Source: Octopus vulgaris (taxonomy: Eukaryota). Taken from it: a stretch of 22,286 bases of DNA. The position numbers and the translations under genes were made by a program. The notes under the pieces were generated by a model that did not search any database, was not told where the DNA came from, and saw only the letters and a list, made by a program, of their open reading frames with translations. The stretch lies in NCBI GenBank assembly GCA_951406725.2, contig CATOCA020000042.1, positions 1 through 22,286 on the forward strand, in the 5' to 3' direction. Shown here one piece after another: positions 11,440 to 12,172 of this stretch; within the stretch, counting starts at the first letter, position 1, and every line of letters starts with the position of its first letter.

Positions 11440-11783
11440 AAAAAAGATTCCTGCTCAGCAGCTGCCCTTTCAACAACACGTTGGTGGTTTGTGGTACGCA
11501 CCACATCTGCGTACCTCCGTTTTGGGGCAGGTGATGCGTGGTCCATCCCATTTCCTTTCGGTGGTTGGTTTCTGTGGCAGGGTCCCGGGTGTGCAAAGCG
11601 GCAGCCTGCACCTTCCTCTCCATGCCGGCAGGCACCTTTCAGGTAGAACCTACATACCCGTGTGCGCTGCTTGTTTCCATCCTTTTTGGCATATGGATAG
11701 TTAGGTTTGCCTCTATTCCTGGCTGCCTTGCCCCTTGGCTTTGTCTGAGTTTTAGCTTCAGTTTTTCCTCTTTTTTGGCTTCT
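11283..11783 (-). CDS. ORF1b: stop-to-stop frame encoding a basic linker, CCCH zinc finger and Q/P-rich tail (no ATG upstream of the finger)
   Basis: Manual upstream extension of ORF 11283-11546 to TGA at 11786-11784 gives ...KQRTRVCRFYLKGACRHGEEGAGCRFAHPGPC... (C-x7-C-x8-C-x3-H at 11654-11589); same in copy 3. Confidence 0.8.
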   Translation of the reverse strand, partial: RSQKRGKTEAKTQTKPRGKAARNRGKPNYPYAKKDGNKQRTRVCRFYLKGACRHGEEGAGCRFAHPGPCHRNQPPKGNGMDHASPAPKRRYADVVRTTNHQRVVERAAAEQESFLCMAQKIVQQLTWLHQAQARRWNCPRFTRPPQQMDPGWTPPATAYTSPRCSY

Positions 11784-12172
11784 TCATCTCCATGTCCATG
11801 GCTTTTGGTGCCGGTAGGAGCATCCGCACCTGGGTTCACCTCCCGGGCAGGCCTCTCGCTGGAGTTTTCTTCCCGGGCGTCCACCAGGTGGGGGTGACCC
11901 TCCTCATCTGCGCCCGCGTCTCCATCCTTGCCATCTTTACTTTGTTCGCGTTTTTCGCTGTTAAAAATGGCATCCAGTGTGTTTATGTGCGATCTGACAA
12001 GTGCGTATGAGCGTACGAACTCTCGCCTCTTCCGCTCTATTTGTGCTGACGTCCTTTTGAATCCTTTGTTCCTTAGTGCTGCCGCAATTATGTTACTTGG
12101 ACTTTCTCCGTCAGCGCATTGCCATCCCCGCAGGAACCACGCCAGTTCATCACGTTTCCAGGCTCTGGACAT
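11639..12172 (-). CDS. ORF1a, 177 aa, N-terminal Myb/SANT-like (trihelix) DNA-binding domain plus acidic linker
   Basis: WKRDELAWFLRGW...IAAALRNKGFKRTSAQIERKRREFVRSY fits the W-x3-E...IA-x2-L-x3-G[FY]-x-RT-x2-Q-x3-K pattern; intact and same length in copy 3. Confidence 0.8.
   Translation of the reverse strand: MSRAWKRDELAWFLRGWQCADGESPSNIIAAALRNKGFKRTSAQIERKRREFVRSYALVRSHINTLDAIFNSEKREQSKDGKDGDAGADEEGHPHLVDAREENSSERPAREVNPGADAPTGTKSHGHGDEEAKKEEKLKLKLRQSQGARQPGIEANLTIHMPKRMETSSAHGYVGST

Follow-up and report, generated by a model that had tools for sequence, protein, structure and literature searches.

Stop–start coupling, unusual initiation and 2A skipping are the described routes by which LINEs translate ORF2. 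In Dictyostelium, TRE5-A and TRE3-A are reported to require a −1 frameshift for ORF2 (PMC5911963), and in Drosophila a frameshift is likewise given as a requirement for the gag-like ORF of the non-LTR element HeT-A (PMC5009743). SART1 is described as obtaining ORF2 by stop–start coupling (PMC3708506), unusual initiation is reported for LINE-1 ORF2 (PMC5009743), and for Paramecium elements +1 shifting, reinitiation or readthrough are mentioned as possibilities (PMC5405496). Among octopus elements, the LINE treated in PMC9115989 is given as a single-ORF RTE element, and a mollusc survey assigns 16 O. sinensis elements to an unnamed clade of the I group (PMC10294476), the supplements of which may hold the families analyzed here. 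The literature covered, to which subscription papers and Repbase reports mostly did not belong, yielded no description of a slippery site or of a CCCH ORF1 in an animal two-ORF LINE.

Here, we analyzed a window of 22,286 nucleotides from Octopus vulgaris in which a CCCH zinc finger had been flagged as a hidden reading frame. The finger, as first flagged, is ordinary and is explained by a one-base loss; what is new is the ORF1 type together with a conserved heptamer in the ORF1/ORF2 overlap of this LINE lineage. Judging from the sequence comparisons below, we consider it probable that ORF1 is a single frame split in the window by a lost A, and that the real recoding signal is a U_UUU_UUG heptamer at which a −1 slip would produce an ORF1–ORF2 fusion.

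The Element and Its Copies

The window is a 22-kb contig with several copies of a young LINE, three of which are referred to below as copies A, B and C, lying among (TA)n tracts. The ORF2 frame of copy A is the following:

9406..11454, (−) strand: ORF2 frame of copy A, with the endonuclease and the start of the RT; cut short in this copy.

In intact copies, ORF2 comprises 986 aa counted from the AUG at the position corresponding to 11295, harbors the domains PF14529, PF03372 and PF00078, and gives a profile match to LINE-1 ORF2p with an E-value of 1.5e-42. The copies also bear the LINE hallmarks of an (AATC)n 3′ tail and of frequent 5′ truncation, many of them starting inside ORF1. By its predicted domains and ends, the element classifies as an APE-type non-LTR retrotransposon (LINE). 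The ESM Atlas gave no usable match, searching PDB sequences with only the endonuclease gave none, and five weak RT matches in viral contigs were set aside.

Several further features of the element and its surroundings were observed. In the short 3′ UTR (6776-6830 on the (+) strand and 17219-17165 on the (−) strand), a GGCGG...TGGCC...CAGC pattern is shared by all four families considered here, i.e., the window's family and three sisters, and a looser form of it occurs in a relative 40% identical in ORF2 (L298, L303 and L210 were examined). This pattern is possibly an RT-recognition structure; an Rfam search on three elements found nothing near the gathering score and left it unmatched. Most of the 3′ ends examined (L061-L158 and L294-L302) run straight into (TA)n tracts, and a preference of this LINE for TA microsatellites is suggested. 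The 5′ part of copy C, at 3150-3530 (+), is interleaved with TA repeats as if element and microsatellite had been merged in assembly. Upstream of ORF1, at 12300-12960 (−), there are pyrimidine-rich tandem repeats which may be a 5′ UTR or promoter, and at 500-2500 (+) lies a broken element from a more distant LINE family whose RT is similar.

ORF1 as One Predicted Protein

The following features of ORF1 were considered:

11283..12172, (−) strand: ORF1 of copy A, from ATG to TGA; a 177-aa frame plus a CCCH frame after the one-base loss, and 296 aa in copies with seven As (A7).
11936..12163, (−) strand: Myb/SANT-like N-terminal domain, approximately residues 4-79 (PF13837, E 0.012; a weak assignment).
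11771..11776, (−) strand: A run, A6 here and A7 in 54 of the 92 measured copies; cause of the split.
11762..11768, (−) strand: G_GAA_AAA, the slip site proposed by the first-pass annotation; no role found.
11589..11654, (−) strand: CCCH zinc finger, C-x7-C-x8-C-x3-H, CRFYLKGACRHGEEGAGCRFAH.
20162..21051, (−) strand: ORF1 of copy B, with an A5-G run at 20655-20650 and the overlap heptamer at 20324-20318.

With A7, ORF1 runs from the ATG at 12172 to the stop at 11283 as a frame of 296 aa, in the order Myb-like domain, linker, CCCH finger and C-terminal helix. The Myb-like region matches PF13837 at an E-value (0.012) that falls under the cut-off, and is modeled as helical with pLDDT of 71-88 over residues 1-70; the ORF1 model as a whole is poor (mean pLDDT 50.8), and its N-terminal helices alone were used. 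In fold comparison, the top match was the MYB domain 2cjj (E 0.98), and Myb-type domains recurred among the matches, none of them reaching an E-value of 0.001. The finger was recovered by profile search with PF18345 (E 1.8e-4), PF18044 (9.5e-4) and PF00642 (2.2e-3), all three under their curated cut-offs (21.9 vs 29, 19.3 vs 24.6 and 18.3 vs 20.5 bits), and its second spacer has eight residues instead of five. Its four Cys-Cys-Cys-His ligands are invariant in 9/9 aligned ORF1s from the four families, among solved structures it best matches Muscleblind-like 1 (E 0.0012), and 88 of the 100 listed copies preserve it intact within its own frame.

A pattern spanning the junction between the two frames found 110 copies in the genome, of which 100 were listed and analyzed. 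The junction is one base longer than in the window copies in 56 of these, equally short in 40 and of other lengths in four. The ATG and the junction are both present in 63 copies; 25 of them run from the ATG into the finger, 15 over the full 296 aa. In the window, the frame of the finger does open at 11783 and is free of ATG upstream of the finger, as had been claimed, and the finger itself stands on its profile matches and conserved ligands, but the claim that no standard start leads to it is contradicted by these 25 copies.

The three sister families, at tblastn identities of ~62%, 35-39% and 33%, likewise carry the Myb-like and CCCH regions in a single frame. A single tblastn segment covered residues 1-296 in 8 of 20 family-2 loci; among 30 loci fetched, it covered residues 1-296 in four loci of family 3 and residues 3-286 in four of family 4. 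The remaining loci of these families, lacking a single segment, were 5′-truncated or had indels of their own. As judged by eye, the proteins P0128-P0130 also hold the N-terminal helical region, the finger and the helix in a single chain. As a separate observation, the last ~80 residues of an annotated Octopus sinensis lipin (P0001) correspond to the ORF1 linker, in frame across the site of the A run; this tail probably reflects an erroneous gene model or an exonised fragment.

Differences between copies had been read as the sign of a switch between frames. Those that recur amount to four synonymous and six non-synonymous in the CCCH frame, against two and five in the split frame, and are too few for fixing the frame after the A run. 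The AAA/AAG difference, part of the same argument, is private to copy B, whose A5-G run is unique among the 100 copies.

On the evidence of the single frame, common to A7 copies and the three sister families, the finger is assigned to ORF1, which is predicted to be one protein from the Myb-like domain through the CCCH finger, with the window copy split by one lost A of an A7 run. The finger thus looks hidden because the window copies are short of one base in that run. It appears to be a genuine zinc finger, forming the C-terminal part of a LINE ORF1 and not a separate hidden product; since it is real and lies within ORF1, an RNA-binding role in the LINE particle would, by analogy, be reasonable.

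A Candidate Slippery Heptamer in the ORF1/ORF2 Overlap

Approximately 320 bases 3′ of the A run, the overlap between ORF1 and ORF2 displays the following features:

11439..11445, (−) strand: U_UUU_UUG heptamer, candidate −1 slip site, in the phase of ORF1 at codons F244-L245.
11455..11457, (−) strand: TGA, the last stop of the ORF2 frame, three codons 5′ of the heptamer.
11283..11454, (−) strand: ORF1/ORF2 overlap, with ORF2 in the −1 frame and AUGs at 11379 and 11295.
3641..3647, (+) strand: heptamer of copy C, whose ORF2 extends to 6749 and is followed by the 3′ UTR and an (AATC)n tail from ~6816.

In the window's family (family 1), U_UUU_UUG encodes part of the conserved ORF1 motif AAAEQESFLCM and includes a T6 run, and from this point the −1 frame is open for 1,036 codons. 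A heptamer that ends in G is weaker for slipping than one that ends in A. U_UUU_UUG is also the heptamer of family 3, and in family 2 either U_UUU_UUA or U_UUU_UUG occurs. In family 4 the peptide has changed to R-N-F, yet 46 of 49 copies have A_AAU_UUU at the corresponding ORF1 motif; the first ORF2 AUG of this family comes 13 codons after the point where the first endonuclease motif starts. One of the 49 family-4 copies, L181 (G000:C15:33203550), differs at several positions in a nine-base stretch spanning the heptamer, with both frames open, and looks intact without a heptamer.

The end of the overlap has a fixed geometry. In all four families, the endonuclease motif starts 7 bases 5′ of the ORF1 stop, and the codon just before it, always 10 bases before that stop, is ATG, ATA, ATA and GTG, respectively; in the window's family, this is the AUG at 11295. 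The Asn of the first endonuclease motif aligns with residue 14 of LINE-1 ORF2p, which we take to be catalytically important.

Conservation of the Heptamer in Distant Relatives

A metagenome scan, from which the best 80 of 545 loci were retained, provided more distant relatives. Together with the four families, these gave 57 elements with an endonuclease start, 50 of which could be placed; 12 of the 50 were excluded as having no overlapping ORF1, leaving 38 scorable. A strict X_XXY_YYZ heptamer in the phase of ORF1 was found within the first 12 overlap codons of 27/38 elements, as opposed to two and two in the other phases, and in 24/34 when the metagenome loci are taken alone. In control windows placed after other −1-frame stops, a heptamer occurred in 38 of 872. 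The binomial P of 3e-27 treats related elements as independent and thus overstates the case, as do all such formal values here because the elements are related. A stronger point is that the heptamer changes between lineages while keeping to the same place. The 11 elements (of 38) without an early strict heptamer include seven with G_GAA_AAC, and family 4's heptamer is at codon 46. PHD and esterase ORF1 types were also present among the more distant relatives.

The lineage with CCCH ORF1s comprises 13 rows (SH-aLRT 99), the metagenomic members being mostly 28-47% identical in the endonuclease. CCCH patterns were found in 12 of the 13, the ORF1 of the remaining one being cut by the contig end. 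All 13 have a heptamer in the overlap, and in 12 of them it is U_UUU_UUR at the overlap start, the 13th being family 4 with its A_AAU_UUU; the metagenomic members show U_UUU_UUA in 9/9 scorable cases, and of the 59 other x-Phe-Leu motifs in these elements just two are coded in this way. In the nine metagenomic relatives, the −1 frame is open for 64-176 codons, each with a chance expectation of 0.007-0.22. The stretch before the endonuclease Asn is free of Met in 19/38 elements, including 6/13 in the CCCH lineage.

Frameshifting versus Reinitiation

If the heptamer works as predicted, most ribosomes would stop at 11283 and yield the 296-aa ORF1 protein, which would package RNA via its finger, while a small share would slip back one base at F244-L245 and produce a fusion of ~1,280 aa carrying the Myb-like and CCCH domains on the endonuclease-reverse transcriptase. 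The slip would set the ORF1:ORF2 ratio as gag-pol slips do, and the AUG at 11295 could offer the window's family a second route to ORF2. For the CCCH lineage, we regard the use of a −1 slip as quite likely; for the window's own family, its continued use is slightly favored. On balance, it seems reasonably likely that the families of this genome represent a switch between frameshifting and AUG reinitiation caught in progress.

Features that might accompany such a slip were variable. No stimulator of the kind expected 5-9 bases 3′ of the heptamer was detected in the window's family in folds that leave out pseudoknots (z +0.58 for a 64-base and +0.67 for a 94-base fold; percentile 0.53). Over 34 sites, downstream folding did not differ significantly from background (P 0.11, again in folds without pseudoknots); in L214, L217, L229, L241 and L272 it tops the elements' own backgrounds, and some relatives have strong hairpins. 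Pairing of the 3′ tail with the region behind the heptamer was considered as a long-range stimulator and rejected: in the 16 elements with a located ORF2 end, the duplex ranks 4-22 among 28-32 control targets, the longest exact matches between tail and heptamer region being 7-9 bases. The overlap shows no extra synonymous conservation (identity of 52-58%, vs 54-62% in ORF2), and for that of the window's family, the probability of being open by chance is 60%.

The main alternative accepts a single ORF1 and holds that ORF2 is reached by termination-reinitiation at the ORF1 stop, the heptamer being a by-product of a conserved Phe-Leu motif or, in the window's family, a relic. The fixed geometry at the stop, with the endonuclease motif 7 bases before it and ATG/ATA/ATA/GTG one codon earlier, fits such coupling, SART1 provides a precedent with its overlapping stop-start (PMC3708506), ORF2 of LINE-1 is said to start unusually (PMC5009743), and the window's family has no stimulator. 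However, reinitiation leaves unexplained why U_UUU_UUA stands where the −1 frame opens in all nine distant relatives scored and is so rare at the other x-Phe-Leu motifs, as well as the substitute heptamers of other lineages and the long open overlaps. We consider this alternative unlikely, if one that retains some weight.

The −1 slip at the overlap heptamer remains the preferred reading. A conserved in-phase heptamer offers a gag-pol-like route by which LINEs may translate ORF2, and the natural variants, with an AUG or none and a hairpin or none, make this route directly testable in reporters. If the slip is true, ORF2p would carry the RNA-binding domains of ORF1.

Origin of the Lost Base

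Of the 92 copies in which the A run was measured, 54 have A7 and 35 A6. A copy tree was built from 91 of the 100 copies, nine having been dropped (short or <96% identical), and 83 of the 91 were labelled for the state of the run. On this tree, the A6/A7 state required 22 changes, vs 24.6 in shuffles (P 0.16), whereas a control subfamily SNP required two vs 11.4 (0/500 shuffles); copies identical over 2,577 columns also differ in A6/A7. Hence A6 as an inherited subfamily was rejected, the tree giving no signal. Germline slippage growing with age was rejected as well, the A6 share being equal in young (16/42) and older copies (15/39) in spite of a five-fold difference in private divergence (0.52 vs 2.54 per kb). 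No association between A6 and a shortened T run (T5) was found (P 0.34), nor did A6 and A7 copies differ in other indels per kb (P 0.15). With no signal on the tree and an equal share across ages, the loss was therefore placed once per copy, in copying or sequencing.

Changes in run length were nearly all losses, 67 being shorter and one longer, and their frequency is 0.9% for runs of five bases and jumps to 31-40% for the two longer ones; A7 and T6 are the sole runs of at least six bases within 3,839 bases. Such one-sided homopolymer shortening resembles nanopore errors as described in PMC5466710. Short-read contigs of four public runs show the A7 form without a row bearing the deletion, and none at T6 either, in contigs from which variants are dropped and among 23 of 46 pieces listed, one of which has 31 letters on both sides. 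The T6 run (11445-11440) was seen to be short in 27/100 listed copies of the window's family, against 9/100 in family 3 (P 0.0015; 100 listed of 417 copies, with the same bases adjoining the run) and 8/100 in family 2 (P 0.0006), the shortening having been counted by eye.

We consider an assembly error marginally on the likely side as the source of the lost A, and slippage during copying a serious possibility that falls somewhat short of probable; neither origin needs a programmed event. A stronger version of the latter would make A7 and T6 true slippage sites of the RT or of an RNA polymerase, so that ~40% of new copies would start out with a broken ORF1, which would matter as a built-in feature of the element. 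The shortening is independent of copy age, as that would have it, falls on the element's sole long runs, and at T6 differs between families where uniform sequencing error predicts otherwise; nonetheless, the near one-sided 67:1 loss with its jump at longer runs has the nanopore-like form described in PMC5466710, the contigs of the four public runs bear no deletion at either run, and we regard built-in slippage as very improbable. It is compatible with a single ORF1 and an overlap heptamer, since nothing but the source of the missing base is at issue. Should the loss be real, the window copies carry a break at the A run and would depend on mobilization in trans.

The location of G_GAA_AAA at 11768-11762 and 20647-20641 was given correctly by the first-pass annotation, and a programmed −1 slip at this site was rejected. 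Split frames are not conserved in the homologues, the majority of copies and each of the three sister families having the Myb-like and CCCH regions in a common frame; the length variation sits at the upstream A run (shorter in 37/92 copies, compared with 4/97 for the A5 of G_GAA_AAA itself); and no stable structure was found 3′ of the motif (z −0.93 to +0.12). That ORF1 is naturally split, with ribosomes slipping at G_GAA_AAA to reach the finger, is scarcely credible even with 40/100 copies one base short, 13 of those with an intact ORF2, and the motif in phase in them, given the in-frame form in the majority of copies and every sister family, an A6 state without lineage signal, no stimulator, and four short-read runs whose contigs read A7 with no deletion. 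The lesson is that one-base homopolymer losses in young repeats can mimic recoding.

Comparison with Known Systems

In its modular ORF1 with a zinc-binding domain, the octopus element resembles the ORF1 types I-V of Jockey, CR1 and L2 elements (PMC4120745). The Myb-like plus CCCH combination is a variant absent from the types laid out in the main text of that paper, where the words "CCCH" and "SANT" have zero occurrences; its supplements may hold these families. With SART1 and LINE-1, the element shares an ORF2 that begins beside the ORF1 stop, the AUG of the window's family lying 10 bases before it, and it differs in its long −1 overlap with a heptamer, which is not described in the relevant passages of PMC3708506 and PMC5009743.

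HeT-A is the nearest precedent for a shift that leads to the finger; according to the passage on it in PMC5009743, however, the HeT-A shift lies inside ORF1, while the octopus ORF1 is predicted to be in a single frame. TRE5-A and TRE3-A share features with the case proposed here, being two-ORF APE-type elements described as using a −1 frameshift for ORF2 (PMC5911963). They differ in being amoebal and in targeting tRNA genes, and the passages of PMC5911963 on the shift do not give its heptamer, whereas the octopus lineage is animal, with a canonical heptamer and a CCCH ORF1.

Finally, the octopus element differs from HIV-1 in being a LINE, without LTR, protease or integrase, and in having a hairpin only in some members of its lineage (L214, L217, L229), with none seen in the window's family. 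The likeness to HIV-1 gag-pol, as that system is outlined in PMC5009743, lies in the signal and in its predicted product: the same U_UUU_UUA is present in 10 of the 13 lineage members, and the predicted LINE slip would also join an RNA-binding protein to a polymerase.
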